Source: Escherichia phage CY1_Cui-2023. Taken from it: a stretch of 43,449 nucleotides of DNA. Of this stretch, positions 16,607-42,811 are shown in pieces; the first letter of the stretch is position 1; each line of letters opens with the position of its first letter. The translations under genes were made by a program, and so were the position numbers. The notes under the pieces were generated by a model. It searched no databases. It saw only the letters and a list, made by a program, of their open reading frames with translations, and had not been told where the DNA came from. The stretch lies in sequence record OQ357823.1; one strand, 5' to 3'.

Positions 16607-16636
16607 AATCAAACACAAACGAGATGGTAAACAAAA

Positions 16637-21790: not shown

Positions 21791-21833
21791 ACTATACAAC
21801 AAAAGCCCCGAAGGGCTTTAGCAATTCGTGCTA
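21791..21833 (-). promoter_or_regulatory. dyad-operator promoter (TAGCA-cgaat-TGCTA) with -10 TATAGT and a terminator-like hairpin in the spacer
   Basis: Dyad 21819-21833; hairpin AGCCC-CGAA-GGGCT 21804-21817; TATAGT (reverse complement of 21791-21796); leader CATCGAAACGAAAGAGAAC before ATG 21758. Confidence 0.5.
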
Positions 21834-22757: not shown

Positions 22758-22829
22758 ATTGATGTGATGGTGAATGAATGGTGGATGGACTACCATACAA
22801 GTTGATTTTTATTCTGGCCGAGCCATTTT

Positions 22830-24250: not shown

Positions 24251-24290
24251 CACGAATTGCTAAACAATCGCCGGAGAAATCCGGCATAAT
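24248..24290 (+). promoter_or_regulatory. dyad-operator promoter (TAGCA-cgaat-TGCTA) with -10 CATAAT
   Basis: Dyad 24248-24262 begins in the TAG stop of the mini-paralog; hairpin CCGGAGAAATCCGG in spacer; -10 24285-24290; leader ATCGACAACACGATGG. Confidence 0.55.
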
Positions 24291-24321
24291 TACCACATCG
24301 ACAACACGATGGAGTATAGAG

Positions 24322-25029: not shown

Positions 25030-25180
25030 CACATGTTTATTCCCGAAATGTGATGAATTTGTTGAGGATTTAATCTACTTCAATGAGAAATACGGTGACA
25101 CGTTTGAGTGCGATGGCGATACAGACGAAGTATTAGCAACTTTTGATAGAGGGCCAGATGTAGACAGCACGAATAGCTAA
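25022..25180 (+). CDS. hypothetical small Cys-containing protein, 52 aa, GTG start (tentative)
   Basis: GTG 25022 preceded by GAGGAT SD; ends DSTNS-stop inside the dyad operator like several other genes; overlaps previous ORF in another frame. Confidence 0.25.
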   Translation: MLNTCLFPKCDEFVEDLIYFNEKYGDTFECDGDTDEVLATFDRGPDVDSTNS

Positions 25181-25207
25181 ACGTGACAGGCATTGATGCC
25201 ATATAAT
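25165..25207 (+). promoter_or_regulatory. dyad-operator promoter variant (CAGCA-cgaat-AGCTA) with consensus -10 TATAAT
   Basis: Dyad 25165-25179; hairpin GGCATTGATGCC in spacer; TATAAT 25202-25207; leader AATCAAACAACGAGAGG. Confidence 0.55.
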
Positions 25208-25236
25208 CAACCAATCAAACAACGAGAGGGCAGAAA

Positions 25237-25901: not shown

Positions 25902-25977
25902 GTTCTGCTGGCGTAACAGGATAACGCAAAGACCTCCTAAGTCTTAGTTGCTGGTTCGAGTCCAGCGCGGAACACCA
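25902..25977 (+). tRNA. tRNA-Arg (anticodon CCU)
   Basis: Hand-folded cloverleaf: acceptor GTTCTGC/GCGGAAC (one G-U), D-arm GCGT-AACAGGATA-ACGC, anticodon arm AAGAC-CTCCTAA-GTCTT (CCT at 25936-25938), T-arm GCTGG-TTCGAGT-CCAGC, discriminator A plus encoded CCA; 76 nt. Confidence 0.8.
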
Positions 25978-28972: not shown

Positions 28973-28984
28973 GCGTGATAAACT

Positions 28985-29007
28985 AGCCTCTTAAATGGGG
29001 CTTTTTT
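28985..29007 (+). terminator. hairpin plus T-run directly fused to the portal SD (TTTTTTATTGGAG)
   Basis: AGCCTC-TTAAAT-GGGGCT then TTTTT, immediately followed by GGAG and ATG 29022. Confidence 0.45.
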
Positions 29008-29021
29008 ATTGGAGCAAGAAA

Positions 29022-30296
29022 ATGGTAAAAGCAGATTCATACGCCACGCAGTTCCTGGGTGGAACTAGTGATGGTAGCGAGATTTACGGGCAATTCGGCA
29101 ACACTTACCTTGCGCCACCATTCGCCGATTCACTTTACGTGTCTAACTCACTGGTTCGCCGCATCGTCGATACCATCCCAGAGACAGCAATCGCCGCAGG
29201 TTTCCATATTGATGGCATTGATAACGAGGGTGAATTCTGGTCAAGGTGGGATTACCTAAAGGTCAACGAGTCAATCTCTGACGCATGGTCATGGGCGAGG
29301 TTGTTCGGCGGCTCAGCTATTGTGGCTATCGTTAAGGATAATCGTGCGCTAACTAGTCCGGTACGTGAAGGTGCTGAACTTGAATCGCTTCGAGTATACG
29401 ATCGCAGTCAGGTGAGGGTGCAAGCGAAGGAGGAGAATCCTCGCAATGTTCGATTTGGAAAACCACTAACGTACCGCATAACACCTGAAGGTAGCTCCAC
29501 GTTTTATGATGTGCATTACTCTCGAGTTCACATTATGGATGGAGAGAAGATTCCTAGCTCATTGCGTCTCGGCAATGATGGGTGGGGTGCTAGCGTTCTG
29601 GTTCCTGACCTACTGGAGGCAATCAAGGATTATCAGACGTGCGAGAAACTGGCAACCCAGTTATTGCGCCGTAAGCAACAGGCGGTATGGAAGGCGAAGG
29701 GGCTTGCTGAATTGTGTGACGACGCAGAAGGTTTTGGTGCGGCAAGGTTAAGGCTGGCTCAGGTTGATGATAATTCCGGCGTTGGTCGCGCGATTGGTAT
29801 TGATGCAGAGTCTGAAGAGTACAGTGTTCTGAACTCGGATATTGGTGGGATTGATGGATTCCTGGATAAGAAATTCGACAGGATTGTTGCTCTGAGTGGT
29901 ATTCATGAAATCATCCTCAAAGGCCGTAACGTTGGTGGTTTGTCATCAAGCCAAAACACAGCATTGGAGACATTCCATAAACTAATCGACCGCAAGAGAA
30001 ATGAAGAATTACTCCCTGTTCTTGGTTTTTTAATCCCGTTCATCACAACCGAGCAGGAATGGTCAGTTGAGTTTAATCCGCTAGCTCAGGAATCGAAGAA
30101 GGACCGCGCTGAAATACTGAAGAATAACGTTGATTCAATCGCCACTCTCATCACTAACGGAGTAATGGACGCAGATGAAGCACGAGATACCTTGCGCGCA
30201 TTAGCCCCTGAGGTTAAGATTGGTGAAGGTTCGATTGTAACTGAGCAGCCCGCACAAGAAGAATCACCAAAAGAGGAGATTGTAATTGAAAGCTAA
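29022..30296 (+). CDS. portal protein
   Basis: About 425-aa ORF after terL with SD GGAG 7 nt upstream of ATG 29022 (track start 28995 lacks an SD); acidic C-terminus. Confidence 0.75.
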   Translation: MVKADSYATQFLGGTSDGSEIYGQFGNTYLAPPFADSLYVSNSLVRRIVDTIPETAIAAGFHIDGIDNEGEFWSRWDYLKVNESISDAWSWARLFGGSAIVAIVKDNRALTSPVREGAELESLRVYDRSQVRVQAKEENPRNVRFGKPLTYRITPEGSSTFYDVHYSRVHIMDGEKIPSSLRLGNDGWGASVLVPDLLEAIKDYQTCEKLATQLLRRKQQAVWKAKGLAELCDDAEGFGAARLRLAQVDDNSGVGRAIGIDAESEEYSVLNSDIGGIDGFLDKKFDRIVALSGIHEIILKGRNVGGLSSSQNTALETFHKLIDRKRNEELLPVLGFLIPFITTEQEWSVEFNPLAQESKKDRAEILKNNVDSIATLITNGVMDADEARDTLRALAPEVKIGEGSIVTEQPAQEESPKEEIVIES

Positions 30297-31398
30297 AATT
30301 CGTTATGACAGTGCAAAAGTTAAAGCGCGATTTGACGAAAACGGATTCCTGGTAGATACACCTGTGGTTGCTCGCGTAGGCGTGCAATCATACTACCTGC
30401 CAGATGGCTCGGAACGACGCGAATTTAGGCCAGCTTCAGAGGTCTTTAAAGCTGATTCTCTTGCAAGTTATCAGGGCAAGCCGATTACCTTAGGCCACGT
30501 GTTTGTTAACGTTGATAATGCCAAGCAGGTAGTTGTAGGCTCAGTGTCTGGCTCAGCAATGCGTCAGGATTCGAACGTGGTAGTTCCACTAACCGTTTAC
30601 GACAAGGAATCAATCGAGAAAGCTAAATCTGGCATTGCCGCCGAGTTATCTGTAGGCTACTCGACTGTTGATGTTGAGTCTCCAGGTTGGGGGAGTAATG
30701 AGACTGGTGAATACAAGTTGGATGGTGATTACGAGTCCCAAGATGAAATTCCACCTGACTGGGTTCGTTTTGATGCACTGCAAACTAACATTATTGTTAA
30801 TCACGTTGCAATGGTATACAAAGGTCGCGCAGGTGTTGCAAAATTGAATATGGACGCAGAACAGGAAAACCCGTATACTGACAGCGTTGATTCTATTAAA
30901 GAGGATGTTAAAGAAATGGTTAAGATTAAACTGGATGGCGCCCAGGAGTTCGAAATCGCTCCAGAAGTTGCCGCACACATTGAAGCTATTAAAAAAGATG
31001 CAGTTGACGCTAAAACCAAAGCCGACTGCATTGAAGCTGAGCGTGATGCGCTGAAGGCTAAAGTAGACGCGATGCCTGCTGAAATCGAGAAAGCCGTTAA
31101 AGCTGCTAAAGCCGACGCTGAAGCACTTGCCGCTCTGGTTACTGTAGCCGCAGAGGTTGGAATTAAGACTGATGGTCTGGATGCTAAAGGCATCAAAGTA
31201 GCTTACGTTAAAGAAGTTTCCGGCCTTGATGTTGCTGATAAATCCGACGCATACATCGACGCAGCGTTCGACATTGCCAAGGATTCTGATAAAATGGCTG
31301 AAGTTCGTAAAGCTACCGTAGCTTCCGACAAATCTGACAAAGCTGACGAACCTAAGAAATTAGACCCACGTGCTCGTCTGGCTAAAATTAAAAAGTAA
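30286..31398 (+). CDS. head maturation protease / scaffold-like protein (TTG start)
   Basis: TTG 30286 with strong SD AAGAGGAG; C-terminal half is Ala/Lys/Glu/Asp-rich coiled-coil-like (scaffold-like); sits between portal and capsid genes. Confidence 0.55.
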   Translation: MKAKIRYDSAKVKARFDENGFLVDTPVVARVGVQSYYLPDGSERREFRPASEVFKADSLASYQGKPITLGHVFVNVDNAKQVVVGSVSGSAMRQDSNVVVPLTVYDKESIEKAKSGIAAELSVGYSTVDVESPGWGSNETGEYKLDGDYESQDEIPPDWVRFDALQTNIIVNHVAMVYKGRAGVAKLNMDAEQENPYTDSVDSIKEDVKEMVKIKLDGAQEFEIAPEVAAHIEAIKKDAVDAKTKADCIEAERDALKAKVDAMPAEIEKAVKAAKADAEALAALVTVAAEVGIKTDGLDAKGIKVAYVKEVSGLDVADKSDAYIDAAFDIAKDSDKMAEVRKATVASDKSDKADEPKKLDPRARLAKIKK

Positions 31399-31409
31399 GG
31401 AGATAGATA

Positions 31410-31904
31410 ATGGCAATTCGTTCTGTAGCTCTGGCAGGTATGGTAGCTGATACTTCCCTGTATAATATCGATGGTGCTTGTGTAGTTGGTGGTACTGCTG
31501 CCACTAGAATCCCGGTTGGAACATTCGTAGGTGTTAGCACCGCTCAGCCAGTAGATGGTCACAAGGTTGTTGCCCTTCCGGCTATATCAGGAACTGCAAT
31601 TAAACCTTACGGCGTTGTTGTTAAATCTCATTATGAGACTCCAGATGGTCAGGCTCGCGGCCTTGAGGCAGTTAACGTAATGACTTCTGGTCGTATTTGG
31701 GTTCGCACTACTCTTGCAGCTGCTCCGGCATTTGGTGACAAGGTTTTCGTAAATGAAAGTGGCGTTGTTGCCGCTAAAGTGGGACGTTCTACCTGGGGAA
31801 CTGGTTTCACATTTGCTGGTGGCTATGTATCAGCTAGTGAAAGCGTTGATGGCGCACTGGTTGAAGTTCAGCTGATTCAATCCGCAGACTCAACTGTGGC
31901 TTAA
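31410..31904 (+). CDS. putative head decoration / head-associated protein, 164 aa
   Basis: SD AAGGAG; Gly/Val/Ala-rich beta-type sequence between scaffold and major capsid genes. Confidence 0.45.
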   Translation: MAIRSVALAGMVADTSLYNIDGACVVGGTAATRIPVGTFVGVSTAQPVDGHKVVALPAISGTAIKPYGVVVKSHYETPDGQARGLEAVNVMTSGRIWVRTTLAAAPAFGDKVFVNESGVVAAKVGRSTWGTGFTFAGGYVSASESVDGALVEVQLIQSADSTVA

Positions 31905-31930
31905 CAAAATCTGAATGCACAAATAAACAA

Positions 31931-31951
31931 CCTCCTTCGGGAGGTTTTTTT
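31931..31951 (+). terminator. intrinsic terminator
   Basis: CCTCC-TTCG-GGAGG hairpin followed by TTTTTTT. Confidence 0.7.
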
Positions 31952-32046
31952 ATACCTTCCGCTTGGTCATGATAGAATCATTGCGCGGTCCTCAAACTAG
32001 TGTATAATTGACTCGTACATACCTAACTGAAAAGGAATAAACAAGA

Positions 32047-32991
32047 ATGGCCATTAAATTTGATGCAGAACAAGCAAAAATCACCGCTCACCTAGAGCAA
32101 ATGGGCGTAGATAAGGCTGATGCTGCTGGTATCTGGACCGTTAAGCAGTTAACCGCATCACTGAATCGCGCTTACGAAAAAGAATACGCAGACAACTCAG
32201 TTGTCAACATCTTCCCAGTAACCAACGAAATCCCTGGTCACGCGAAATACTTCGAATACCCTGAGTTCGATGGTGTTGGTATTGCTCAGATCATCGCTGA
32301 TTACTCTGACGACCTGCCGCTGGTTGATGCTTTCATGACCGAGAAGCAGGGTAAAGTATTCCGCTTCGGTAATGCGTTTATGATCTCAGTTGATGAGATT
32401 AAAGTTGGCGCTGCTACTGGTCAGTCACTGTCCGCTCGCAAACAGGCTTTGGCTTTTGAAGCTCACGACAACCTGCTTGATAAACTGGTATGGTCTGGCT
32501 CTGCACCTCACGGCATCGTAGGCGTATTTAACCAGCCGAACATCAACAACGTTGTTGCAACTCCAAACTGGAGCAATCCAATTAACGCGGTTAACGACGT
32601 TACCGCAATGATTGATGCTGTAGAAACCAGCACACAGGGCTTCCACCATGTAACTGACATTCTGCTGCCAGCTTCCGCTCGCCGTGTAATGCAGCGCCTT
32701 GTTGATAATACAACCCTGAGCTATGGCGAGTTGTTTACTCGTAACAACCCAGGTGTAACCCTGCGCTTTATGCAGTTCCTGGATAACTACGATGGTGCTG
32801 GCGGTAAAGCTGCGCTGGCGTTTGAAAAGGATCCGCTCAACATGAGCATCGAGATTCCGGAAGTTACAAACGTTTTACCTGGTCAGCCTCGTGATCTTCA
32901 CTTCCGCTTCCCTGTAACCTCTAAGGCGACAGGTTTGATTTTATATCGCCCTCTTACAGTGGCAGCTATCAAAGGAATTACCTTTGCCTAA
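32047..32991 (+). CDS. major capsid protein
   Basis: 314-aa ORF with SD AAGGAA, positioned after portal/scaffold/decoration genes; abundant-protein-like codon usage. Confidence 0.7.
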   Translation: MAIKFDAEQAKITAHLEQMGVDKADAAGIWTVKQLTASLNRAYEKEYADNSVVNIFPVTNEIPGHAKYFEYPEFDGVGIAQIIADYSDDLPLVDAFMTEKQGKVFRFGNAFMISVDEIKVGAATGQSLSARKQALAFEAHDNLLDKLVWSGSAPHGIVGVFNQPNINNVVATPNWSNPINAVNDVTAMIDAVETSTQGFHHVTDILLPASARRVMQRLVDNTTLSYGELFTRNNPGVTLRFMQFLDNYDGAGGKAALAFEKDPLNMSIEIPEVTNVLPGQPRDLHFRFPVTSKATGLILYRPLTVAAIKGITFA

Positions 32992-33034
32992 TAGCACTAA
33001 ATGACAAAACAATACCACCGAAAGGTGGTATTTT
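32992..33034 (+). promoter_or_regulatory. degenerate dyad operator (TAGCA-ctaaa-TGACA) with terminator hairpin in spacer, upstream of second HNH gene
   Basis: Dyad 32992-33006 right after capsid stop; hairpin ACCACC-GAAA-GGTGGT plus TTTTT 33013-33035; weak -10 TATTTT 33029-33034; leader CATCAAAACAATGGAGG. Confidence 0.35.
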
Positions 33035-33062
33035 TGTTTCCATCAAAACAATGGAGGCGAAA

Positions 33063-33659
33063 ATGAAAATTGAAGAACTACTAACTCACGAAGAGCTAAC
33101 ATCAAGACTTGAATCAGATTCTGAAAGTCCCGTTATGACATGGAAAGTAAAGCCGGGAAATGATAGGTTTACAAATGTATGGAATTCAAGGTACGCCGGA
33201 AAGGTTGCTGGAGGTGAATTCACTCCAAACCCAACATGCCCAGAAAGTAAGATGTGGAAGCTATGTATTAAAGTTTCCGGGAAGAAGTTTCACGTTTCAA
33301 TGCATAAGTTAAAGTGGTTTTATCATCACGGGAGTTGGCCGACAGGTGAGATAGATCACATTGATGGTAACTCATTAAACAATAGGGTGGAAAACCTAAG
33401 GGTTGTTACTCGAAGTGAGAACATGATGAATACGAGCCTATACAAAAGGAACAAGAGTGGATTTAAAGGTGTTAGCTACGATAAATCAAGGGGGAAGTGG
33501 AAAGCCCAGATACAAAAGGATTGCGGAGATGTAAGGATGGCTAAAAGGTTTGACACAATTGAAGAGGCTAAGGAGTGTTACGACAGTTGGTGTAAAGAAA
33601 TATTCGGCGAGTACGGAAACGCCAATGGGGTTCACGAAGGCGATTGTTTAGTGCTATAA
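33063..33659 (+). CDS. HNH homing endonuclease with AP2-like domain (paralog of 26892-27398)
   Basis: EIDHIDGNSLNNRVENLRVVTRSEN then KSGFKGVSY...GKWKAQI...FDTIEEA, parallel to the first HNH; GGAGG SD before ATG 33063. Confidence 0.8.
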   Translation: MKIEELLTHEELTSRLESDSESPVMTWKVKPGNDRFTNVWNSRYAGKVAGGEFTPNPTCPESKMWKLCIKVSGKKFHVSMHKLKWFYHHGSWPTGEIDHIDGNSLNNRVENLRVVTRSENMMNTSLYKRNKSGFKGVSYDKSRGKWKAQIQKDCGDVRMAKRFDTIEEAKECYDSWCKEIFGEYGNANGVHEGDCLVL

Positions 33660-33689
33660 TCAATCATCAATTAATAAAAGGAGCAAGTA

Positions 33690-33935
33690 ATGATTAAGTT
33701 AGAACACACTGGCGCGTGCATGATTGTTTATAAAGGTGCTAAATACTTACCTGGCGACACAATTGAAGCAAGTGAGCTTTGTGATGGACTGAAACGCCTG
33801 ATTGCTGAAGGTAAGCTCACTATTGAAGGTGACTACAAGGCAACTAAAGAAGTGGCGCAAGAAATCAACAGTAAGAAAAAACGCAAAGAACCAAAGACCA
33901 TCTCTGAAGCCGAGACTGGCAACGAGTACAAATAA
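33690..33935 (+). CDS. hypothetical protein, 81 aa
   Basis: SD AAAGGAG before ATG 33690. Confidence 0.5.
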   Translation: MIKLEHTGACMIVYKGAKYLPGDTIEASELCDGLKRLIAEGKLTIEGDYKATKEVAQEINSKKKRKEPKTISEAETGNEYK

Positions 33936-33941
33936 CAAAAT

Positions 33942-33964
33942 GGGCGCTTCGGCGTCCGTTTTTG
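33942..33964 (+). terminator. intrinsic terminator
   Basis: GGGCGC-TTCG-GCGTCC hairpin followed by GTTTTT. Confidence 0.55.
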
Positions 33965-33976
33965 TATGGAGGTAAT

Positions 33977-34093
33977 ATGTCATTATTTTTAGCGGTTATG
34001 TCAGTACTTCTATTCATCCCAATGTCTTTGGTTGGTTTGATTCTTATTGCTGCATTTATTAATGGCGACCTATTCCGGAGGTTTTATGAATGA
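33977..34093 (+). CDS. hypothetical small membrane peptide, 38 aa
   Basis: GGAGG SD before ATG 33977; translation MSLFLAVMSVLLFIPMSLVGLILIAAFINGDLFRRFYE. Confidence 0.3.
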   Translation: MSLFLAVMSVLLFIPMSLVGLILIAAFINGDLFRRFYE

Positions 34094-34481
34094 ACAAGCA
34101 TTAGCATTCATGAGGTCATTAGTTCCTGCCCTTAAGAATGTTTCTGATGAAACACTTGACGTATGGCTTGAACTGGCTAAACTTTACATCTGCACTAGTA
34201 AGTTTGGTGATGATGCTTACAAGGCACTTGCACTGTACACTATGCACATTGCCTTTCTTGATGGTGCACTTAAGCAGAATGAGTCTTTGGATGATTACGG
34301 TAAGAAGGTGGCAAGTTACTCCCTGAGTGGTGAGTTCTCTATCAGCTATGAATCAACGTCTCAATCACAATCAGCACTGACTTCCACCCCGTGGGGTCGT
34401 CTGTACTGGAACCTTCTGCGTAAGAAAGGTGGTGGCTTTGGATTGGTTACGTCCGGTGGGCGTGGGTGCGGTTGCCGATGA
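34086..34481 (+). CDS. putative head-tail connector / head completion protein
   Basis: ORF in the connector position between head and tail genes; GGAGG SD before ATG 34086 (track start 34047 is TTG). Confidence 0.45.
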   Translation: MNEQALAFMRSLVPALKNVSDETLDVWLELAKLYICTSKFGDDAYKALALYTMHIAFLDGALKQNESLDDYGKKVASYSLSGEFSISYESTSQSQSALTSTPWGRLYWNLLRKKGGGFGLVTSGGRGCGCR

Positions 34482-34849
34482 ATTACTCTCAAATCGAATC
34501 ATTAATGCGAGCGGGAATCAATATCTTTAGTGATGGCGATGGTACGTTTACCATGGAAACTGGTAAAGGTGGGGTGGAGATTGTCGATGGTGTCGAGGTT
34601 CCTGTATCTGGCGGCACTGCATTAATCAAGGGGCTGGTGAGGGAGATTAAAACCAGAGATATTGATGGTGAGTATATTCAGTTTGGCGATAAGCGTGGAA
34701 TCTTCACTTCCGAGGTGCCAATCTTGCAAGGCTACAGGATTATTGTTGATGACGAAACTTACACTGTAGTCGACCCGAGACCAGTGAAACCAACAGGTAC
34801 TGTAGTCGCATACAGGCCAATTCTGAGGAGGATTGCTGCTTATGGCTAA
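34478..34849 (+). CDS. putative head-tail joining protein
   Basis: ATGA-coupled ORF in the connector region. Confidence 0.45.
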   Translation: MNYSQIESLMRAGINIFSDGDGTFTMETGKGGVEIVDGVEVPVSGGTALIKGLVREIKTRDIDGEYIQFGDKRGIFTSEVPILQGYRIIVDDETYTVVDPRPVKPTGTVVAYRPILRRIAAYG

Positions 34850-35279
34850 TAATGTTGGTGGCTTAGCTACATTCACGAACTCTATCAATGACTGGATTTC
34901 AAGAGCTGATGATGGTTTTTCTGAAATTGTTTCAGGCACTGTAATTAAAGCAGCTAACGCCATTGTTGATTTATCTCCTGTTGATACTGGTAGGTTTAAG
35001 GCTAACTGGCAGATTACAGCAAACTCACCAGCAGTACAGTCGTTAAATGATTACGACAAGACTGGCGGTGATACAAAAAGGTACCTTGCAAGACAAGCCA
35101 GAGCAGTAGCTAACTCACCAGCAACAAAGGTTATCTACATAACCAACAGGCTAGATTATGCGTCAGATCTTGAATACGGTGCATCGCAGCAAGCGCCAGC
35201 AGGTGTACTTGGTGTAGTTAATATCAGACTTGGTCGATACTTTGAGGAAGCCGTTGCTGAAGCGAGGAGTAAACGATAA
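34842..35279 (+). CDS. putative head-tail adaptor / tail completion protein
   Basis: SD GAGGAGG before ATG 34842; coupled to neighbours. Confidence 0.45.
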   Translation: MANNVGGLATFTNSINDWISRADDGFSEIVSGTVIKAANAIVDLSPVDTGRFKANWQITANSPAVQSLNDYDKTGGDTKRYLARQARAVANSPATKVIYITNRLDYASDLEYGASQQAPAGVLGVVNIRLGRYFEEAVAEARSKR

Positions 35280-35677
35280 TGCAGTATGAGCTATCTTTAG
35301 CATCAAGGAGGTTTGTGACTGATTTGGTTAAAACGTTTCCAGTCAGGTATCCAATCTCCTACGAAAACGTAGCATTCTCTCCTCCAAGTAATGGCGGTAT
35401 GTGGCTGAAGTACGACTACACTGAGGCCGATACCGTAACCTATAGCTTGAGTCGCAAGTGCAAATACTATGTCGGCATGGTTCAGGTCTCTGTATTTTTC
35501 TCACCAGGTGATGGTGTTGATAGCGCAAGGAGGTTGGCGAATCAATTGGCAGAATCAATGCTTGATGGTACAATGCTTGACACAGGCTACATTTATGAGG
35601 GCGGAGTAGTTCACCCGGTAGTGAAGTCAAAATCTGGCTGGTTTATTCCAGTTCGTTTCTATGTTCGTCTTGACTAA
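35279..35677 (+). CDS. putative tail terminator protein
   Basis: TAATG-coupled ORF immediately upstream of the major tail gene. Confidence 0.45.
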   Translation: MQYELSLASRRFVTDLVKTFPVRYPISYENVAFSPPSNGGMWLKYDYTEADTVTYSLSRKCKYYVGMVQVSVFFSPGDGVDSARRLANQLAESMLDGTMLDTGYIYEGGVVHPVVKSKSGWFIPVRFYVRLD

Positions 35678-35688
35678 AAGGAAAATAT

Positions 35689-36348
35689 ATGGCCCATCTC
35701 AGCAATGGCACCCAGGTCTTCGTAGAGGGCACTAGGGGTAATACTATCGACGTAACAGCAATTACCAATGCTGTTGCTCCTGTTTTAACTTTGTCCGACG
35801 CCACAGGTATTGCGCGCGGGGATTACCTGCTGTTCACCAGCTCAGCTTCAACACTTCTGGCTGATAAGCAAGTTCGTGTCACCGCGGTATCTGGTTCGGA
35901 CGTAACTGTTGAAGGTATTGATACCTCCAACAACACTAAGTTTCCAGCCGGTTTAACTGGTGAAGTAGTTAAGATTCTTAGCTGGTTTGAAGTTCCTTGT
36001 GTTCAGGATGTATCCACTGACGGCGGCGAACAGCAGTTCGTTAACTTCCAGTGTTTATCTGATGACCGCGAGCAACAGATTCCAACCTATAAGTCTGCGG
36101 TAACTAACACCTACACGTTCGCGCACGAATACACCAACCCGGTATATCCGATTCTGCGTAACTATGATGAGTCTGGTCAGGTTGTTGCTATCCGTCTGTT
36201 CGTGCCTCGCGCTAGTGAGATGCGACTTCAGTCTGGCACTATCTCTTTCAACGACACCCCGAGCATTGGTGTTAACGAAATCGAAACGGTATCCATCGCG
36301 GTATCCATCCGTGGTAGGCTGAGTTCTGTGGCTTCTGAGCTAGTATAA
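35689..36348 (+). CDS. major tail protein
   Basis: 219-aa ORF with SD AAAGGAAA, followed by a strong terminator and then the chaperone and tape-measure genes. Confidence 0.65.
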   Translation: MAHLSNGTQVFVEGTRGNTIDVTAITNAVAPVLTLSDATGIARGDYLLFTSSASTLLADKQVRVTAVSGSDVTVEGIDTSNNTKFPAGLTGEVVKILSWFEVPCVQDVSTDGGEQQFVNFQCLSDDREQQIPTYKSAVTNTYTFAHEYTNPVYPILRNYDESGQVVAIRLFVPRASEMRLQSGTISFNDTPSIGVNEIETVSIAVSIRGRLSSVASELV

Positions 36349-36353
36349 AATTA

Positions 36354-36375
36354 ACCCTCTTCGGAGGGTTTTTTA
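36354..36375 (+). terminator. intrinsic terminator after major tail gene
   Basis: CCCTC-TTCG-GAGGG followed by TTTTTT. Confidence 0.7.
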
Positions 36376-36379
36376 TTGA

Positions 36380-36422
36380 TAGCACTTTTTGTTAAAGACG
36401 TGTGGCAGGGATTTGCTATTAT
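36380..36422 (+). promoter_or_regulatory. dyad-operator promoter (TAGCA-ctttt-TGTTA) with -10 TATTAT
   Basis: Dyad 36380-36394; -10 36417-36422; leader ATCGAAACGAGATGG before ATG 36462. Confidence 0.5.
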
Positions 36423-36461
36423 TACTTTATCGAAACGAGATGGATTATAGAGGTAAACAAA

Positions 36462-36602
36462 ATGATTTTAATTGGTATGCTGACCGCTTTTTTCTATTAT
36501 GCTACAGGTCTAACCTTTTGGGTATCATTAGGTGCAGCCATAGGCACTTACTTCGTATCTGCTTTGCTTGCTTTAATTGTGAGAGCGCTGCGTAATCGCT
36601 AA
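36462..36602 (+). CDS. hypothetical small membrane protein, 46 aa
   Basis: ATG 36462 after conserved leader; two hydrophobic segments (LIGMLTAFFYYATGLTFWVSLGAAIGTYFVSALLALIV). Confidence 0.35.
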   Translation: MILIGMLTAFFYYATGLTFWVSLGAAIGTYFVSALLALIVRALRNR

Positions 36603-36620
36603 AACGAGAGAGAAAACAAA

Positions 36621-36869
36621 ATGAACAACGTTAAAAATATCATCAAACTTACTGCTGCTCTTGGTGCTTTCTACCTGGCAATTCAGATTGTCAACCCAAC
36701 TGGTGGCGCAACCGCAAACTCTGATGCAATAAAGTATGAACATGAATTTAATAGTGCATATTCGCATTGTGAAAAAGTAGCTGGCGATAAGACAAACCAG
36801 ATTCTGCACTATGGTCGCGAAGTGTGCACCGAAGTTGCTCACAACATTGTAAAAAACGAATCAAAGTAA
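36621..36869 (+). CDS. hypothetical small secreted protein, 82 aa
   Basis: N-terminal signal-peptide-like IIKLTAALGAFYLAIQIV; leader AACGAGAGAGAAAACAAA. Confidence 0.45.
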   Translation: MNNVKNIIKLTAALGAFYLAIQIVNPTGGATANSDAIKYEHEFNSAYSHCEKVAGDKTNQILHYGREVCTEVAHNIVKNESK

Positions 36870-36904
36870 TATAATCATTCAACATAAACAAAGGAGATAA
36901 CGAG

Positions 36905-37219
36905 ATGGCAAAATTCAAACTTTCACTTAAGGCGCTTCCTGACTTTAAACTTCCAGTTAAGTTTCAGCTTGCGAATGGAGAGGACGCAGAAGTAGTCTTA
37001 ACAGTTAAGCACAAGAAATCATCTGAGTTACAGGAGATTCTTAATCGTGAAAACTTCAGCACTAAGGAATTGATTAGCGAAATCTGCTCTGACTGGGATT
37101 TAGAAGAACCATTTAACGATGAGAACGTCGATGAGTTTGCAAACCTTTTCCCTGGTGCAGTTCCATCGCTAATGGATAGCTACATGAAAGCACTTGCAGG
37201 GCAGCGAGTAAAAAACTAA
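36905..37219 (+). CDS. tail assembly chaperone (lambda gpG-like)
   Basis: 104-aa ORF with SD AAAGGAG directly upstream of the tape measure gene; ends at a slippery heptamer. Confidence 0.65.
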   Translation: MAKFKLSLKALPDFKLPVKFQLANGEDAEVVLTVKHKKSSELQEILNRENFSTKELISEICSDWDLEEPFNDENVDEFANLFPGAVPSLMDSYMKALAGQRVKN

Positions 37220-37533
37220 AACGCGCAGTATACTTACAATACCAGTCACCGCCAACGGATGCCGAACTCGAAGCTATCGGAATGAAACGTTCCGATTATG
37301 AAGGTGAGGAGCCTGAAGAGTTACACTTCGATGAAACAATGATGCAAAGCTGGGATGTGTACTGTGCTATGTCGACACAATGGCGAGTGGGTGCTTGCGG
37401 TGCCACAGGCCTTGATTATAATTGCCTTCCATTCTTGTTCAAAGTCTATAAAATAGATGATGAAGAAATGGTACTTAACGATATCAGAATACTTGAGGCT
37501 AAAGCCTTAGATATGATGAACGCCAAGAAATAG
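36905..37533 (+). CDS. tail assembly chaperone frameshift product (gpGT-like), made by -1 slip at 37210-37216
   Basis: After the slip the frame continues LKRAVYLQYQSPPTDAELEAIGMKRSDYEGE... to TAG 37531-37533 without stops. Confidence 0.5.
37210..37216 (+). other. programmed -1 ribosomal frameshift slippery site A_AAA_AAC
   Basis: Heptamer AAAAAAC at the last two sense codons of the chaperone gene; the -1 frame is open from here to 37533. Confidence 0.6.
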
Positions 37534-37556
37534 CCATCCTTCGGGGTGGCTTTTTT
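37532..37556 (+). terminator. hairpin plus T-run fused to tape-measure SD (TTTTTTATTATGGAGA)
   Basis: AGCCATCC-TTCG-GGGTGGCT followed by TTTTTT and GGAGA, 6 nt before ATG 37571. Confidence 0.5.
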
Positions 37557-37570
37557 ATTATGGAGACAAT

Positions 37571-40543
37571 ATGGCAACTAACGAAATTGCTGGTATCACG
37601 CTAGCCGTCGACGTCGCTCAGGTCGATAAGGGTACGCAATCATTACAGAAATTCAGGCAAGCAAACGAGCAAGCTGCAACGGGAATCAATAGCTTCATCA
37701 ACGCCGAGCTTGTAGCCAAGACTCAAGCAAGGGACACTGCAAGGCAGCTTGAGGAACAGCGCAAATCTTTCGCATCACTTCAGAAAGCCATAGACCCAAC
37801 TGCCGCTAAATTCCAGAAGTTGCAGAAGGCAGCAACTGAATTAGACAAAGCATTTGAATCTGGGATAGTTCCTGATGAAGAATTCTTCAGGCTTGGCTCT
37901 GTTATTGAAACTCAAATCAATAAGCTCAACAGGTCTAAAGCTGCTCTTAGCGAGGAAGGTCGGGCTGCACTCCAGGCATCAATAGACAAAGAAAAGGCAA
38001 CAGCAGCGGCGCAAAAGTTCATTCAATCTCTTGAGAACGAGGCGAATGCAGCAAGCCTTACAAGGACTGAACTGCTTCAGCTTAAGGCTGCTCAGCTAGG
38101 GGTTAGTGACCAAGCTGCGCCTATTATCGACAGGATTGGTAAGGCTGCCGAGGCATCTGCTGTTCAGTTGCAGAAGCAGAGTTCCGCTTTTCTTAAGTCA
38201 GGTTTAAGCGCCGGTCAGTACAAGCAAGCGATTCGCCAGCTACCCGCTCAGATTACAGATATCGGAACTTCCCTTGCTAGCGGCATGCCAGTCTGGCTTG
38301 TTGCAATCCAACAGGGTGGGCAGATTAAGGATAGTTTTGGCGGTATTGGAAATACAGCAAGGTTTGCACTGGCAGCCATTAACCCATTAACAGCAGTTGT
38401 TGGGACTCTAGGCCTGGCTCTTGGCGCTTTGGGTGTTGCGGCTTATCAGGCCGATAAGAATGCTCGAGGACTAGCATCTACGATAACGTTGGTTGGCAAC
38501 TCAACTATCACGTCTACAGCGCAGATAAATCAGGTTGTTGATGGAATTGAGAGATCAACACTAGCTACTCGCGGACTTATTCAGGAAATAGCCAATAGCC
38601 TTGTGGCAAACGGAAACCTAACTCTTACGCAGATAGACAAGATAACTAAGGCAACAGCGCAGTGGGCGGCAGTAACATCAACCGATTCAAAGACCATTCT
38701 CGGGTACTTTGACCAAATTACAAAAGACCCTGTTAAAGGCCTTGCTGAGCTTGATAAGCAATTTAACTTCCTTCAAAGTGGGCAGTTAAAACACATAGAG
38801 AACTTAAGGAAGACAGCGGGAGAGACTGAGGCTGTAACAGCAGCTACTGAGTTATTTGCTAACGTTATGGAAAACAGGCTAGAAGATGTTGCACTAAGCC
38901 TCAATCCGCTAGAAAGTGCATGGAATAGCTTCAGGAAGTTTGTAAGTAATATTTGGGATGATATCGGCAAAAGGACACTTGGTGCTCTTAACTTAATAAC
39001 TGACGTTGTTGCTGGGACGATTGAGCAGATAAGGTCGTTCATAAACTCAGGCGACATTCTTCTTGGTGAATTTGCTATCGCTGCAACCAAGACGCTTCAG
39101 TCAATCCCGGGACTTGGCGATTTAGGCAATGAAGCAATCGCTGAGCAGCAAAAGATTGTCGATGCTGCCAAGAAGCAAAACATTGAGTTAGCTAAAAGCA
39201 TAGCTGAGCGAGACGCGAGAATCAGGAAGGGTGAACTTGGTTATGTCGAGAGCAACAATAACACTAACCTGAGCGGGAATAATGCATCAACAGATAAGGA
39301 GTTCGGAGCAAGGAAGAAAGCGCTAGCAGACGAGCTTGATGCAATAAAGAAATCGAGGAGCGAGAGGAATAAGGCAGTAAAAGAAGAAATGGATTTAACT
39401 TTATCTTATGAATCTGGTGTTCTTGCACTTCAGGCTCAGTTAAAGGCTTTGCAAGAGCATAGGACGATAAATGATGTAATAAGTAACGAACGAAAGCAGC
39501 TATTCCAGGAAGAAGCTAAGTTTGCAATACTTGAACAAAGATATGCTGATGGTAGCCTGACTAAGTCTCAAGCCAAACTGCTAGCGCAGAAGGATATCAT
39601 TCTTGAGCAAGCTAAACAGAAGGCTGAACTTGGTGACCGAATCGTTCTTCAGGAGCGGTCAAACAAGTTACTTGATGACAACCTTAAGAAGACAATACAG
39701 ATTACCAATGAGGCGAAGAATGTTTCACTTGCTGCTGGTCTATCCGAAAGGGAGCGGCAAAGGGCAAGAGAACTTCAGGCGCTAGAGTCCAATCAGTTAA
39801 ACAAAGGTGGATCTGTAGATGATGTTGATTTCCAGAATCTGCTGGAAGCAAGAAAAGAATACTACAGGCAGGAAGATAACCTAAGGTCAGACTGGCAAGC
39901 TGGTGTAACTTCAACGCTTGCTGACTTAACTGAGAAGTACACTGACTTCAACCAAATTGCTAAGGATTTGACTGTCGCAGCTTTTGATGGAATTACCGAC
40001 CAGATTACAAACCTTGTAACCACTGGTGAGACTAATTTCAGGGAGTTCACGGTAAGCATCCTCAAAATGATTGCGAAGATTGCGACACAGCTTCTGATTG
40101 TTAAGGCTATTGAGTCAAGTTTGAGTAGCTTTGGTGGCACTGGCGGCGCAATTGGTTCAATTGGTAGTGCGCTTGGATTTGCTGGCGGCGGCTACACTGG
40201 TGACGGTGGGAAGTATCAACCTGCTGGAACGGTGCACAAAGGTGAATTTGTTTTCACCAAAGAAGCAACCAACAGGATTGGCGTTAAGAACCTGTACAAG
40301 CTGATGCGAGGTTATGCCAATGGTGGCGCTGTTGGTGGGCCTTCTGGCTATGCTAATGGTGGAGTTGTTGGCGGTACAAATGTTAATGTAAGCGGAATCA
40401 CTGTTAACGTGAATTCTGGAATCGGTGGCGGTAATGATGCTAAGGCGATAGAATCTGGAGTCAAGGTTATCGTGGCTGAGGAAATCAGCAAGTCATTCCA
40501 GCAGGGTGGCAGGGCCTTTGCTTTCTTGCGAGGTTATAATTAA
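37571..40543 (+). CDS. tail tape measure protein, 990 aa
   Basis: Very long Ala/Gln/Lys-rich helical ORF with C-terminal Gly-rich segment, located between chaperone and M/L/K/I genes. Confidence 0.85.
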   Translation: MATNEIAGITLAVDVAQVDKGTQSLQKFRQANEQAATGINSFINAELVAKTQARDTARQLEEQRKSFASLQKAIDPTAAKFQKLQKAATELDKAFESGIVPDEEFFRLGSVIETQINKLNRSKAALSEEGRAALQASIDKEKATAAAQKFIQSLENEANAASLTRTELLQLKAAQLGVSDQAAPIIDRIGKAAEASAVQLQKQSSAFLKSGLSAGQYKQAIRQLPAQITDIGTSLASGMPVWLVAIQQGGQIKDSFGGIGNTARFALAAINPLTAVVGTLGLALGALGVAAYQADKNARGLASTITLVGNSTITSTAQINQVVDGIERSTLATRGLIQEIANSLVANGNLTLTQIDKITKATAQWAAVTSTDSKTILGYFDQITKDPVKGLAELDKQFNFLQSGQLKHIENLRKTAGETEAVTAATELFANVMENRLEDVALSLNPLESAWNSFRKFVSNIWDDIGKRTLGALNLITDVVAGTIEQIRSFINSGDILLGEFAIAATKTLQSIPGLGDLGNEAIAEQQKIVDAAKKQNIELAKSIAERDARIRKGELGYVESNNNTNLSGNNASTDKEFGARKKALADELDAIKKSRSERNKAVKEEMDLTLSYESGVLALQAQLKALQEHRTINDVISNERKQLFQEEAKFAILEQRYADGSLTKSQAKLLAQKDIILEQAKQKAELGDRIVLQERSNKLLDDNLKKTIQITNEAKNVSLAAGLSERERQRARELQALESNQLNKGGSVDDVDFQNLLEARKEYYRQEDNLRSDWQAGVTSTLADLTEKYTDFNQIAKDLTVAAFDGITDQITNLVTTGETNFREFTVSILKMIAKIATQLLIVKAIESSLSSFGGTGGAIGSIGSALGFAGGGYTGDGGKYQPAGTVHKGEFVFTKEATNRIGVKNLYKLMRGYANGGAVGGPSGYANGGVVGGTNVNVSGITVNVNSGIGGGNDAKAIESGVKVIVAEEISKSFQQGGRAFAFLRGYN

Positions 40544-40574
40544 TTAATGTGGCTTCGGACACTAAGGATTTTAA

Positions 40575-40925
40575 ATGGCATTGCAAACTTTTAACTGGTG
40601 CTTGAACGTTCTCAATGGCGGCTCTTCATTTACTAACGCCAACAATGTTAGGGTTGTCTCATTTGGGAATGGATTTCAGCAGCGTGGTACTGGAGGCTAC
40701 AGAACGAATAAAAGGACGTATACGGTTAGCTACGTTGGTCGTGAGTGGGAAGCAGTAATGAACTTCTGCTTCGATCACATCGTAAAACCTTTCGCGTGGA
40801 CTACGCCGCAGGGTGAGTTAAAACTGTTCGTTATTCAGCAGGATAGCATTAGCGTCTCGCCAAGCACGAAAGAAGTTCAGACTGTTAGTATGCAATTTAC
40901 TGAAGTTTTCACCTCAATGAGTTAA
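40575..40925 (+). CDS. minor tail protein (lambda gpM-like)
   Basis: 116-aa ORF after the tape measure gene, SD AAGGA. Confidence 0.65.
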   Translation: MALQTFNWCLNVLNGGSSFTNANNVRVVSFGNGFQQRGTGGYRTNKRTYTVSYVGREWEAVMNFCFDHIVKPFAWTTPQGELKLFVIQQDSISVSPSTKEVQTVSMQFTEVFTSMS

Positions 40926-40929
40926 ACTA

Positions 40930-40952
40930 AGGCCCATAGAGGGCCTTTTTTA
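40930..40952 (+). terminator. hairpin plus T-run fused to SD (CCTTTTTTATTGGAGAG)
   Basis: AGGCCC-ATAGA-GGGCCT followed by TTTTTT and GGAGAG before ATG 40964. Confidence 0.5.
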
Positions 40953-40963
40953 TTGGAGAGAGT

Positions 40964-41719
40964 ATGGCAAGTGTAAAGTTTGAAAACCAACTTCAATCAC
41001 TTTTCCCTGGTGAAGTGGTTACGCTTATTGAGGTTGATGGCAGCAAGTTCGGCGCAAGGGTTTACAGGTTTCATGGGGAGAATATCTCATACACGCCTGA
41101 AGAAATCATGCAAGCCCAGGCATCTGGTCAGCCACTACCAGCCAAGACAATTACATTTCGTGGCGAAGAGTATGGAGCCAGACCTTTCGGCATTAGCGGC
41201 ATCAACCTTACATCTGATGGAAAAGCAAACAAGCTCACGCTAACTTTATCAAACGTTGACCAGGCTGTTTCCTCGCTAATCCGTCAGTACAATGGCATGG
41301 TTCAGGCGAAGGTAACAATCTGGGTTACTATCAGGGATAATATCAATGATGATGGCAGCATTGCAGATGGCGATTATCGTAAGATGGTTTACTTTATTGA
41401 GCGTCCAAAGCAGGTTGACTACAAGACTGCCTCTTTTGAGTTATCTAGCCCAATTGATATGGATGGTATCTATATTCCAGCGAGGCTAGTCCAGTCAGTA
41501 TGTTACTTTGCTTCTCGTGGATGGTATCGCAGTGGCAACGGTTGCGATTATGCTGGGAATCGCTACTTCGACAAAGACAATAATCCGGTTGATGACCCTG
41601 GGTTAGATTTTTGCGCCGGAACTGTTGATTCCTGTAAGTTGAGGTTTGGTGAAAACAACCAGCTATCATTTGGGGGGTGTGCCTCCGCAAGTTTACAAGC
41701 TAAGAATAATCAGAACTAA
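40964..41719 (+). CDS. minor tail protein (lambda gpL-like) with C-terminal Cys cluster
   Basis: 251-aa ORF; C-terminal cysteines (CYFASRGW...GCDYAG...FCAGTVDSCKLRFG) as in the lambda L Fe-S domain. Confidence 0.7.
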   Translation: MASVKFENQLQSLFPGEVVTLIEVDGSKFGARVYRFHGENISYTPEEIMQAQASGQPLPAKTITFRGEEYGARPFGISGINLTSDGKANKLTLTLSNVDQAVSSLIRQYNGMVQAKVTIWVTIRDNINDDGSIADGDYRKMVYFIERPKQVDYKTASFELSSPIDMDGIYIPARLVQSVCYFASRGWYRSGNGCDYAGNRYFDKDNNPVDDPGLDFCAGTVDSCKLRFGENNQLSFGGCASASLQAKNNQN

Positions 41720-41790
41720 TAGCATTTTTGATAAATACAAACTGCCAGGGATGGTATATAGTTACTTTACACAAACGATAGGATACAGAA

Positions 41791-42000
41791 ATGAAAAGTA
41801 AATTTATTGAATGCGTAAGATCTAGCGAATACTGGAATTTGACTATTGGTGATATCTACACTTTAAATCTCGATGGAGATGAGTCAGAATTATTCATAAA
41901 AGATGACATGGGAACAAAGCTACACCTTGAATACCTTCCTGAGTCATCAATGCTAAGCTTAATTGCGGACCATGATTGTATTTTCACTCATATCGATTAA
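41791..42000 (+). CDS. hypothetical protein, 69 aa (moron-like insert between L and K)
   Basis: ORF with its own SD in a separate intergenic island between two otherwise adjacent tail genes. Confidence 0.45.
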   Translation: MKSKFIECVRSSEYWNLTIGDIYTLNLDGDESELFIKDDMGTKLHLEYLPESSMLSLIADHDCIFTHID

Positions 42001-42026
42001 AACAAAGCAAGATTAGTGTTAAACTA

Positions 42027-42052
42027 GGTCAATCGAGAGATTGGCCTTTTTT
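42027..42052 (+). terminator. hairpin plus T-run fused to SD (CCTTTTTTATTGGAGAC)
   Basis: GGTCAATC-GAGA-GATTGGCC followed by TTTTTT and GGAGAC before ATG 42065. Confidence 0.5.
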
Positions 42053-42064
42053 ATTGGAGACAAA

Positions 42065-42811
42065 ATGCTAACACCAAAAGTTAAATTAGAAATCATGCGC
42101 CACGCCAAAGAGGATTACCCTAATGAATGTTGCGGAGTAGTAACCCAAAAAGGTATGGCTCAGAAGTACCATCGAATCACTAACACATCTAAAGACCCTG
42201 AGAATGAATTCATTCTTGATGCCAGTGGGTACATGAAGATTAGCGATGAGGAGCGAGTTGTGTACATTGTCCACTCACACACTGGAGATGGGGCCACCAC
42301 CAGACCTAGTCCAGCAGATATATGCAGTTGCAATGAGTGCGAGATTCCTTATGTAATTGTTAGTTACCCTGAGGGTGATATGCGAATCCTTGAGCCAGAG
42401 GACATGCCGTTAGCAGGAAGGCCATGGGGTTTGGGTAGCTTTGATTGCTGGGGGTTGATTATGGCATTCCACGCAAAACACGGCGTCAAACTGGCTGACT
42501 ACCGCGTTAATTACCCGTGGTGGAACAAGGAGTATGGTGAAAATATATATGATGACAATTGGATTAATGAAGGATTTGAGCTACTAGAAACTGATGATAT
42601 TCCTGTTGGCTCCATGATTATGATGCAGATTCAAAGTGAGACCACGAATCACGCAGGAATCTATATTGGCGATAACAAATTCTTGCACCATCTTTACGGG
42701 AAGATGAGTAAAGTTGATACCTATAGTGATTATTGGCGCGAGCGTACGGTTCGCATTGTTCGCCACAAAGATTTACCAGAAGGAGCAAACTACAATGCAG
42801 AGACTGATTAA
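42065..42811 (+). CDS. tail assembly protein (lambda gpK-like; JAB/MPN plus NlpC/P60)
   Basis: JAMM-type HSHTGDGATTRPSPAD motif and downstream Cys/His segment (FDCWGLIMAFHAKHG); ATG 42065 has SD GGAGAC (track start 42041 is TTG). Confidence 0.8.
   Translation: MLTPKVKLEIMRHAKEDYPNECCGVVTQKGMAQKYHRITNTSKDPENEFILDASGYMKISDEERVVYIVHSHTGDGATTRPSPADICSCNECEIPYVIVSYPEGDMRILEPEDMPLAGRPWGLGSFDCWGLIMAFHAKHGVKLADYRVNYPWWNKEYGENIYDDNWINEGFELLETDDIPVGSMIMMQIQSETTNHAGIYIGDNKFLHHLYGKMSKVDTYSDYWRERTVRIVRHKDLPEGANYNAETD

Follow-up and report, generated by a model that had tools for sequence, protein, structure and literature searches.

Terminator hairpins fused to ribosome-binding sites as probable transcription boundaries in the late region of a T1-like Escherichia phage

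Several late genes of Escherichia phage CY1_Cui-2023 (sequence record OQ357823.1) are preceded by a GC-rich hairpin with a T-run that leads straight into the Shine-Dalgarno (SD) sequence and start codon of the next gene, which raises the question of what a terminator-like element does at a ribosome-binding site. The original prediction proposed partial termination that sets stoichiometry within the operon, possibly coupled to ribosome loading. The complete stretch analysed here (hereafter the window; 43,449 nucleotides, plus strand unless stated otherwise) is that of a T1-like siphophage (Drexlerviridae, Braunvirinae-like), with 99.7% identity to Escherichia phage TR2 and, across the late region, 95% to Rao1. 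Pfam matches were obtained for the portal protein (Phage_portal_3), the tape measure protein (TMP; TMP_2), L (Phage_tail_L) and K (NlpC/P60+JAB), as well as for a primase Zn ribbon, M, tail assembly chaperone G (Phage_TAC_4) and a Cro-like regulator. Judging by sequence and position, the cassettes are probably compact transcripton boundaries in which a leaky terminator is joined to the next ribosome site; most would also hold a nested promoter, with the TMP cassette acting as a pure attenuator.

All four late arrangements of the original prediction, before the portal, tape measure, L-like and K-like genes, are present in the sequence, as is the hairpin-T6-ATG arrangement of the primase gene at 11225-11196 on the minus strand. 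The late cassettes consist of a GC-rich stem of 6-9 bp, T6, ATT or ATTAT, GGAG, 5-7 nt and ATG. At the portal junction the stop codon of TerL (28970-28972) is followed by an extended -10-like element, TGATAAACT (TGaTAAACT, 28976-28984), that abuts the terminator (28985-29010). The latter comprises a hairpin at 28985-29002 with stem AGCCTC/GGGGCT, loop TTAAAT and U-tract TTTTTTATT (T6 at 29002-29007), and folds with its flanks at -15.8 kcal/mol (z -3.3). GGAG at 29011-29014 and a 7-nt spacer lead to ATG 29022 (29011-29024). The TMP-junction terminator (37532-37561) has its hairpin at 37532-37551, with stem AGCCATCC/GGGTGGCT and a UUCG loop, and the U-tract TTTTTTATTAT (T6, ATTAT); the base of its stem is overlapped by the stop codon of the T frame, it has no -10-like hexamer, and GGAG at 37562-37565 with a 5-nt spacer precedes ATG 37571 (37562-37573). 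At the M/L junction a -10-like hexamer TAAACT (40923-40928), with a G at -14 (aGtTAAACT), includes the stop codon of M. The terminator (40929-40954; hairpin 40929-40947, stem AAGGCCC/GGGCCTT, -12.1 kcal/mol) shares the U-tract TTTTTTATT and runs into GGAGAG (GGAG 40955-40958) and ATG 40964 (40955-40966). The K junction resembles that of the portal: the extended -10-like element TGTTAAACT (TGtTAAACT, 42017-42025) abuts a terminator (42026-42055; hairpin 42026-42047, stem AGGTCAATC/GATTGGCCT, loop GAGA, again TTTTTTATT, -14.5 kcal/mol, z -2.5), followed by GGAG 42056-42059 and ATG 42065 (42056-42067).

Three features were absent from the original prediction: the -10-like hexamer 5' of four hairpins, the place of the K cassette in an insertion, and a sixth cassette at 33942-33979. 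This last one reads GGGCGC-ttcg-GCGTCC, GTTTTTGTAT, GGAGG, taat and ATG 33977, with U-tract GTTTTTGT, and folds at -15 kcal/mol (z -3.1). The primase junction (11194-11231, minus strand) comprises TATAAT (11231-11226), stem GCCCTC (11225-11220)/GAGGGC (11208-11203), an 11-nt loop, T6 (11202-11197) and ATG 11196; it folds at -10.6 kcal/mol (z -2.5). Upstream of it, the regulator gene has its stop codon at 11239-11237. Here there is no separate SD, the sole SD-like sequence being GAGGG within the 3' arm, 7 nt from the ATG.

Across the cassettes the stems have 4-5 GC pairs, loops measure 4-6 nt (primase excepted), and hairpin energies range from -8.9 to -15.8 kcal/mol with z-scores of -1.6 to -3.3. 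All are in sense orientation to their flanking genes, with stop-to-stem distances of -2 to 25 nt. The 13-mer TTTTTTATTGGAG occurs in three exact copies versus 0.11 expected. A strict scan that required a perfect stem, five or more T, no more than 6 nt, an SD and a start codon returned five sites, all on the plus strand in the late region, versus 0.02 expected in 200 dinucleotide shuffles; the fifth of these is the cassette at 33942-33979. Minimum-energy and centroid folds of the cassettes contained the terminator stem with an optional A/U extension and no competing antiterminator fold, and an Rfam scan of the whole window yielded tRNA only, hence no known leader or riboswitch. The possibility that the cassettes are bidirectional terminators was rejected, the reverse strand lacking a T-run.

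Homologous junctions were gathered from eight annotated relatives and 84 IMG/VR loci. Stems were anchored on the T-run by means of a script, as a MAFFT alignment of the portal junctions misaligned stems of unequal length and was not used; for the conservation count the T-run had to be followed by SD and ATG, either directly or past a spacer. A hairpin with T-run was found in 48/49 unique TerL/portal regions (13 distinct fully paired stems) and in all unique M/L regions (nine distinct stems), while hairpin, T-run and SD were present together in 24/24 unique T/TMP regions (six distinct stems). The stems show 2-4 pair types per position, with compensatory changes such as AAGGCTGG/CCAGCCTT versus AGGGCTGG/CCAGCCCT at the portal junction; since pairing was a selection criterion, the figure of 100% paired stems is not itself evidence, and the meaningful result is that such a stem is present at all in 48/49 portal and 24/24 TMP junctions. 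The same numbers of portal and TMP junctions have an uninterrupted T5-T7 directly 3' of the stem. The string T5-7 ATT(AT) GGAG is common to subfamilies with portal proteins that are just 55% identical. With their positions kept across Drexlerviridae while the stems turn over, the cassette hairpins are selected structures at selected positions. The original prediction had looked to related phages for conservation of the cassette, and there hairpins indeed recur at the same junctions across Drexlerviridae, with compensatory stem changes. For the L-like gene of Shigella phage Sd1 (NC_047847, 25900-25960) RefSeq gives GTG 25900 as the start, ahead of the M/L hairpin and T-run; the true start is likely the ATG after TTTTTATTGGAGAAATATT.

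With this anatomy and conservation the cassettes are very probably functional intrinsic terminators. RNase E prefers AU-rich single strands right behind a stable stem, a context that the cassettes also offer, and one could envisage that the hairpins guard upstream 3' ends while the AU-rich linker (UUUUUUAUU) serves as an RNase E site, with decay setting transcript levels. That stems can have some value besides termination is suggested by KP36 (11476-11541), where the TerL/portal junction retains the hexamer CATAAT and the stem GTGGGCC/GGCCCAC without a T-run; it is the sole portal junction of this kind, and its stem may have a role apart from termination in Webervirus. Nevertheless, the conserved uninterrupted T5-T7 is the defining need of intrinsic termination and would be superfluous for 3' protection. 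We consider RNA processing a quite improbable main function, and as a role it would be compatible with termination rather than an alternative to it.

The layout as such, a terminator beside a ribosome site, is not new, going by the existing annotation of T1 and KP36. The T1 record (NC_005833) lists rho-independent terminators at 10545-10573 (portal), 19508-19527 (TMP), 22793-22816 (L) and 35930-35971 (primase), which end 10-20 nt before the start codons, and the KP36 record has terminators at TerL/portal, T/TMP and M/L with the same distance of 10-20 nt to the next gene. For T1-like phages 18-21 intergenic terminators have been reported (PMC4070988), and the late region of T1 has been described as consisting of 'transcriptons' flanked by terminators (PMC11447400, summarising Roberts et al. 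2004). T1 has the same junctions and anatomy as the window, its portal junction even containing T5ATTGGAGG. In contrast, its stems differ, the K-junction cassette has no T1 counterpart, and the T1 M/L terminator is not fused to the SD, with a -10 in between. The abutting -10 and the start geometry predicted below lie outside the published transcripton description, as far as the accessible part of that source goes. Since 10 of the 16 annotated T1 terminators end within 23 nt of the next ATG, a T-run fused to the ribosome site is the norm in T1-like phages.

That same proportion, together with the single such cassette of phage lambda (after lom), would also be expected if terminators came to lie beside ribosome sites by chance, phage intergenic regions being short. 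We regard this lack of special significance as very improbable. The ordinary ribosome sites of the window read AAAGGAG, unlike the cassette sites, where the exact T5-7 ATT(AT) GGAG is kept across subfamilies; besides, compaction accounts for adjacency but not for why terminators lie within a late gene cluster.

Stop codon, GC hairpin, U-tract, SD and AUG are packed into a minimal intergenic space, and what the fusion could do follows from its register. The U-tract of 8-9 nt (UUUUUUAUU) ends exactly where GGAG starts, with zero spacer, so a terminated RNA would lack the next ribosome site, which read-through RNA would have in an open U-rich context. Each cassette would thus close the upstream transcription module, with the RNA ending at the U-tract. 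The terminators would be leaky and sensitive to translation. The tR2 terminator is nearly fully repressed when it lies 8-9 bp past a stop codon that is translated, and works at its maximal efficiency only at distances beyond 30 bp (PMC4824070). Stop-to-hairpin distances in the window are -2 (T), 3 (M), 6 (the open reading frame (ORF) at 33690), 11 (regulator), 12 (TerL) and 25 nt (the 69-aa ORF before the K hairpin), so that at five of the six hairpins a ribosome stopping -2 to 12 nt away would repress hairpin formation. The coupling of termination to ribosome loading suggested by the original prediction found no backing, nothing tying termination to the downstream SD; the plausible link is instead the upstream ribosome stopping 0-12 nt before the hairpin.

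Upstream of the T/TMP junction the slippery heptamer A_AAA_AAC (37210-37216), in phase with G (36905-37219), marks the G/GT -1 frameshift, and the T (-1) frame stays open between 37180 and a TAG (37531-37533) that overlaps the base of the hairpin. Among relatives the T stop codon lies 0-10 nt from the TMP stem or overlaps it, the 10 nt being found upstream of the stem in the JeanPiccard/12210I group. As the T frame is reached only via the frameshift, few ribosomes would shield this terminator. Having no promoter, and following a frame translated only after frameshifting, it should be the most effective of all, lowering transcription into the low-copy tape-measure and tail-tip genes. Partial termination that reduces the dose of TMP and tail-tip products is the most economical reading of this junction, although we hold dosage control here to be an evenly balanced possibility.

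The other junctions differ from that of TMP in what precedes the stem. Four of the six cassettes have a -10-like element, TGn plus TAnnnT being full at portal and K, partial at L (without the T of TGn) and primase (TATAAT without TGn), and absent at TMP. Among relatives, a TAnnnT hexamer lies 0-4 nt 5' of the hairpin GC core in 48/48 portal junctions versus 0/24 TMP junctions, and its absence from the latter argues that it is not a generic by-product of sequence 5' of terminators. Positions T1, A2, A4 and T6 are invariant in all 48, with only positions 3 and 5 varying, unlike the loops and SD-ATG spacers of these junctions, which vary freely. Within the portal set, this pattern fits that of a -10 element, where T-12, A-11 and T-7 are fixed and the middle is free. 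In Braunvirinae and Rogunavirinae the hexamer reads TAAACT, TACAAT or TACACT. The group of T1, tunus and related phages has TATAAT, TACAAT or TAAAAT, T1 and tunus themselves having the consensus TATAAT. Braunvirinae and Rogunavirinae keep TG at -15/-14 irrespective of the gene in front; in the lineage of the window, with TGaTAAACT, this gene can be TerL, an HNH gene or an inserted ORF. In the KP36 record an annotated promoter ends at the stem-loop.

At the M/L junction the placement of the hexamer appears complementary to that of the ribosome site. If T-run and SD are fused, the hexamer is situated 5' of the hairpin, as TAAACT, which is retained in two related loci (L069 and L091) with an upstream gene other than M, or, in Sd1-like phages, as TGtTAATAT. 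In T1, tunus and KP36 a distance of 25-45 nt separates the T-run from the ATG, and a -10 (TAGAAT, TGtTACAAT, TATGAT) is found between T-run and SD; tunus also has a weak hexamer, TAATTT, upstream of the hairpin. In the window, the elements at 28976 and 42017 are among only nine intergenic gene-oriented TGnTAnnnT motifs, most of the others being at a promoter-like distance upstream of a gene. Among these others are consensus extended -10 elements that follow other hairpins: TGgTATAAT at 26265 before TerS, TGaTAGAAT at 31970 before the major capsid gene and TGgTAGAAT at 10239-10231 (minus strand) before the tail fibre gene. As stand-alone repeats TAAACTAG and TTAAACTA are not over-represented in the window and are informative only by their position beside hairpins. 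A nested promoter at the portal, L, K and primase junctions is, on this evidence, a tentative proposal that falls somewhat short of an even chance.

A host sigma-70 polymerase bound at the abutting -10 would start about 7 nt downstream, within or just past the 5' arm, with predicted starts at around 28991-28993 (portal), 40936 (L), 42032 (K) and 11219 (primase). Since such a transcript lacks the 5' arm or most of it, it could not fold the terminator and would reach the next gene; at primase it would also unmask the SD, which the 3' arm otherwise hides. Transcription arriving from upstream would then most likely end at the portal, L, K and primase junctions and begin anew within about 50 nt. 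Restart would be needed because nine terminator-like hairpins lie between 26230 and 43396.

The same hairpins can be read as partial terminators only, a stepwise fall in transcript levels setting stoichiometry with the TAnnnT hexamers as by-products. This is in essence the partial termination of the original prediction, which stands in part: the terminator features, the conserved positions and the TMP junction without promoter-like element agree with it, while at portal, L, K and primase a conserved -10 abuts the hairpin. Moreover, low-copy genes (TMP, M, L, K and I) do lie behind several hairpins, and part of the M/L TAAACT is accounted for by stop codons. On the other hand, some nine hairpins in series over 17 kb would starve the distal genes and nearly silence those such as low-copy J, and the high-copy capsid gene sits behind two hairpins. 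Restart is evidently used elsewhere, as the consensus extended -10 elements that follow the hairpins before TerS and the capsid gene indicate. The portal hexamer is invariant whatever lies upstream, inserted ORFs included, and the M/L hexamer switches from 5' to 3' of the hairpin in other lineages. We therefore think it unlikely that attenuation is all there is to the cassettes, and prefer boundaries with restart at most junctions and attenuation at TMP.

Several observations weigh against this preferred reading. Many of the compared sequences are close relatives, so that the counts do not represent independent events. TAAACT equals TATAAT at just four of six positions, and TGnTAnnnT is not significantly enriched in the intergenic DNA of the window overall (14 of 136 motifs versus 8% of bases, p = 0.2). 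Hexamers like a -10 readily come from A-rich sequence and TAA stop codons 5' of terminators, and they also occur 5' of some hairpins that have their own following promoter (36353, 3392). In addition, an upstream AUAAA can pair with the U-tract UUUAU, which offers another reason for conservation of the hexamer, and in tunus-type phages the predicted start keeps 4-5 nt of the 5' arm. Close spacing of stop codon and hairpin also occurs behind high-copy genes (4 nt in the case of the major tail protein gene) and may reflect compaction rather than regulation. Finally, no mapping of transcript 5' or 3' ends (transcription start sites, Term-seq or RNA-seq) was found in the literature on Drexlerviridae and T1, so that termination efficiency and promoter activity are wholly deduced.

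A more specific and more tentative version of the boundary reading, which we rate as possible though rather less than evenly likely, is that of a three-in-one insulator. With the -10 placed against the 5' arm, arriving transcripts would either terminate or carry a structured leader, whereas those born in the cassette would be immune to the terminator and would have an open ribosome site. At TMP, read-through could hinge on a rare frameshifted ribosome, tying transcription of the tape-measure gene to synthesis of the GT chaperone. The same logic may occur in other registers, with a hairpin in the -35/-10 spacer of the repeat-containing promoters described below, or with a -10 right after the U-tract.

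The cassettes also coincide with places of gene gain. Between L and K the window has a moron-type insertion (41720-42064) that consists of a direct-repeat (DR) promoter (ATAGCAtttTTGaTAAA ... GTATATA ... ACACAAACGA), a 69-aa ORF (41791-42000) without Pfam match, and the K cassette at its 3' end. L and K are adjacent in most relatives, and others carry a Rha gene, HNH-like genes or an unrelated ORF there. In one IMG/VR locus (L065) a different L-K ORF is followed by the identical 3' cassette, and the K cassette arrived with the inserted moron. Phages ES and Sd1 have DR-promoter morons exactly between TerL and the portal cassette. A 38-codon hydrophobic ORF (MSLFLAVMSVLLFIPMSLVGLILIAAFINGDLFRRFYE, 33977-34093) lies between the 33942 cassette and the gp20 homologue (ATG 34086); Rao1 lacks this ORF and has the cassette directly 5' of its gp20 homologue. 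With morons or ORFs inserted at the K, portal (ES, Sd1) and 33942 cassettes, the cassettes mark points of gene gain, the TMP cassette not being at an indel boundary.

It is conceivable that recombination is the primary role, the shared flanks TAAACTA(A)G ... CTTTTTTATTGGAGA being kept as short homologies for gene swaps with regulation secondary. Three copies in the window have 9 nt in common before the stem and 14 nt after it, although the stems themselves are unrelated, and each of the insertions above fits this idea: the two L-K ORFs that end in an identical cassette, the precisely placed morons of ES and Sd1, and the ORF that begins at a cassette ATG in the window and is missing from Rao1. 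A precedent exists in the promoter-early stem-loops (PeSLs), which combine terminator and promoter and are described as mediating indels (PMC4122927). At 9-14 nt, though, the homologies are very short, no recombinant junction was shown inside a cassette, and the TMP cassette is universal and not tied to indels. Recombination would account for the spread of the cassettes and not for their function, and as the primary explanation we judge it improbable.

The likeness to PeSLs of T4-like phages deserves some care. Those too are short terminator-plus-promoter motifs repeated between genes at indel boundaries, next to ORFs that are variable or inserted (PMC2839356, PMC4122927), and in the window a hairpin with a -10-like hexamer is repeated four times with shared flanks, its promoter activity being predicted. 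Phage family and sequence differ, however, and PeSLs are found in hyperplastic early regions, the cassettes in the late structural region. In the window the -10 stands directly against the hairpin on its 5' side, and the U-tract runs into the SD. The likeness is one of analogy and not of membership.

Lambdoid morons are inserts of promoter, ORF and terminator, such as lambda lom. The L-K insert of the window likewise holds these three elements between two tail genes, and the lom terminator also runs into the next ribosome site (19633, TTTTTTGTGGGGTGAATATG). This likeness covers the K cassette only, as those of portal, TMP and L are flanked by core genes in all Drexlerviridae examined. The late operon of lambda is read by Q antitermination, and no such cassette was found at its A..J junctions; the homologous junctions are overlapping or tightly coupled, the exception in the late region being the one after lom. 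Internal partial terminators are known to grade operon expression, as in rpsU-dnaG-rpoD, at the filamentous-phage gene VIII terminator and by read-through of T7 T-phi. The T/TMP junction resembles these in having an intrinsic terminator between co-directional genes, with read-through feeding lower-copy products; unlike them, the window has many terminators in series, most with a promoter-like element. Bacterial initiation and termination sites of adjacent units are claimed to be extensively coupled in the abstract of one preprint (bioRxiv 10.64898/2026.08.19.745784), and the nested -10/hairpin geometry would be a coupling of this kind. T7 class II terminators that act as promoters, described in a preprint, were considered and set aside as not relevant to hairpin terminators.

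Timing and grading of late expression are essentially unstudied in T1-like phages, a large family that includes many therapeutic candidates. These phages encode no RNA polymerase or sigma factor, and in the literature we found no report of an antiterminator in them, despite about nine strong-looking terminators among the structural genes. Three additions made here can be tested: the geometry of the nested -10, its complementary position at M/L and, at TMP, a possible coupling to the frameshift. If the nested geometry is true, it would explain expression of distal genes as well as why the motifs mark moron entry points, and would provide a compact, portable 50-nt part (terminator, promoter and ribosome site) for synthetic biology. 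If the cassettes are only leaky terminators, they represent ordinary operon-internal attenuation of a kind already annotated in phage T1.

The DR promoters form a second recurrent motif. A 21-nt direct repeat, aaATAGCACnnnTTGnTAAAA, was described in phage TLS, its function being unknown (PMC11447400). The window has about 17 sites of this type (23 matches versus 6.3 expected), for instance at 7478-7495(+), 14223-14240(+), 17773-17790(+), 21817-21834(-), 24247-24264(+) and 36379-36396(+). The repeat is part of a longer conserved unit, in which it is followed by about 15 nt, gGTATAaT, 6 nt, ATCGAAACGA, and finally SD and ATG. The unit resembles a complete promoter, with TAAA(g/c)A as -35, an 18-nt spacer and a -10, plus a conserved leader box. 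Use of the repeat's TTGnTA as -35 of the portal hexamer was considered and rejected, the spacing being only about 8 nt. Some DR promoters have a GC hairpin in the -35/-10 spacer, e.g. TAAAGCCCCttcgGGGGCTTTTGTTGTATAGT, as at 21817-21780(-), 24247-24295(+), 16563-16610(+) and 25164-25210(+). In T1 the terminators annotated at DR promoters (38973-39001, 39998-40024 and 41980-42007) have weak U-tracts that are the -10 hexamers (TATTAT, TATAGT), and these hairpins appear to be promoter and terminator overlapping in another register.

A few further elements were recorded in the window. Behind the capsid gene (33011-33053) there is a hairpin with a 3' arm and T-run that make up TGgTATTTT (33026-33034), an extended -10-like sequence about 17 nt before the ATG (33051) of an HNH endonuclease gene. 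As no SD is recognisable for this gene, its transcript may have a very short leader. The palindromic hairpins AAAGCCCC(GAAA/TTTC)GGGGCTTT at 3392-3411 and 8670-8689 are mutual reverse complements between convergent genes and are probably bidirectional terminators; a further hairpin lies at 19224-19240. The hairpin AACCTCCTTCGGGAGGTT is identical at 31929-31946(+) and 10274-10257(-). A tRNA gene (25902-25974; Rfam RF00005, 59 bits) lies inside a 520-nt gap upstream of the terminase region, and relatives have a tRNA-Arg at the corresponding position.

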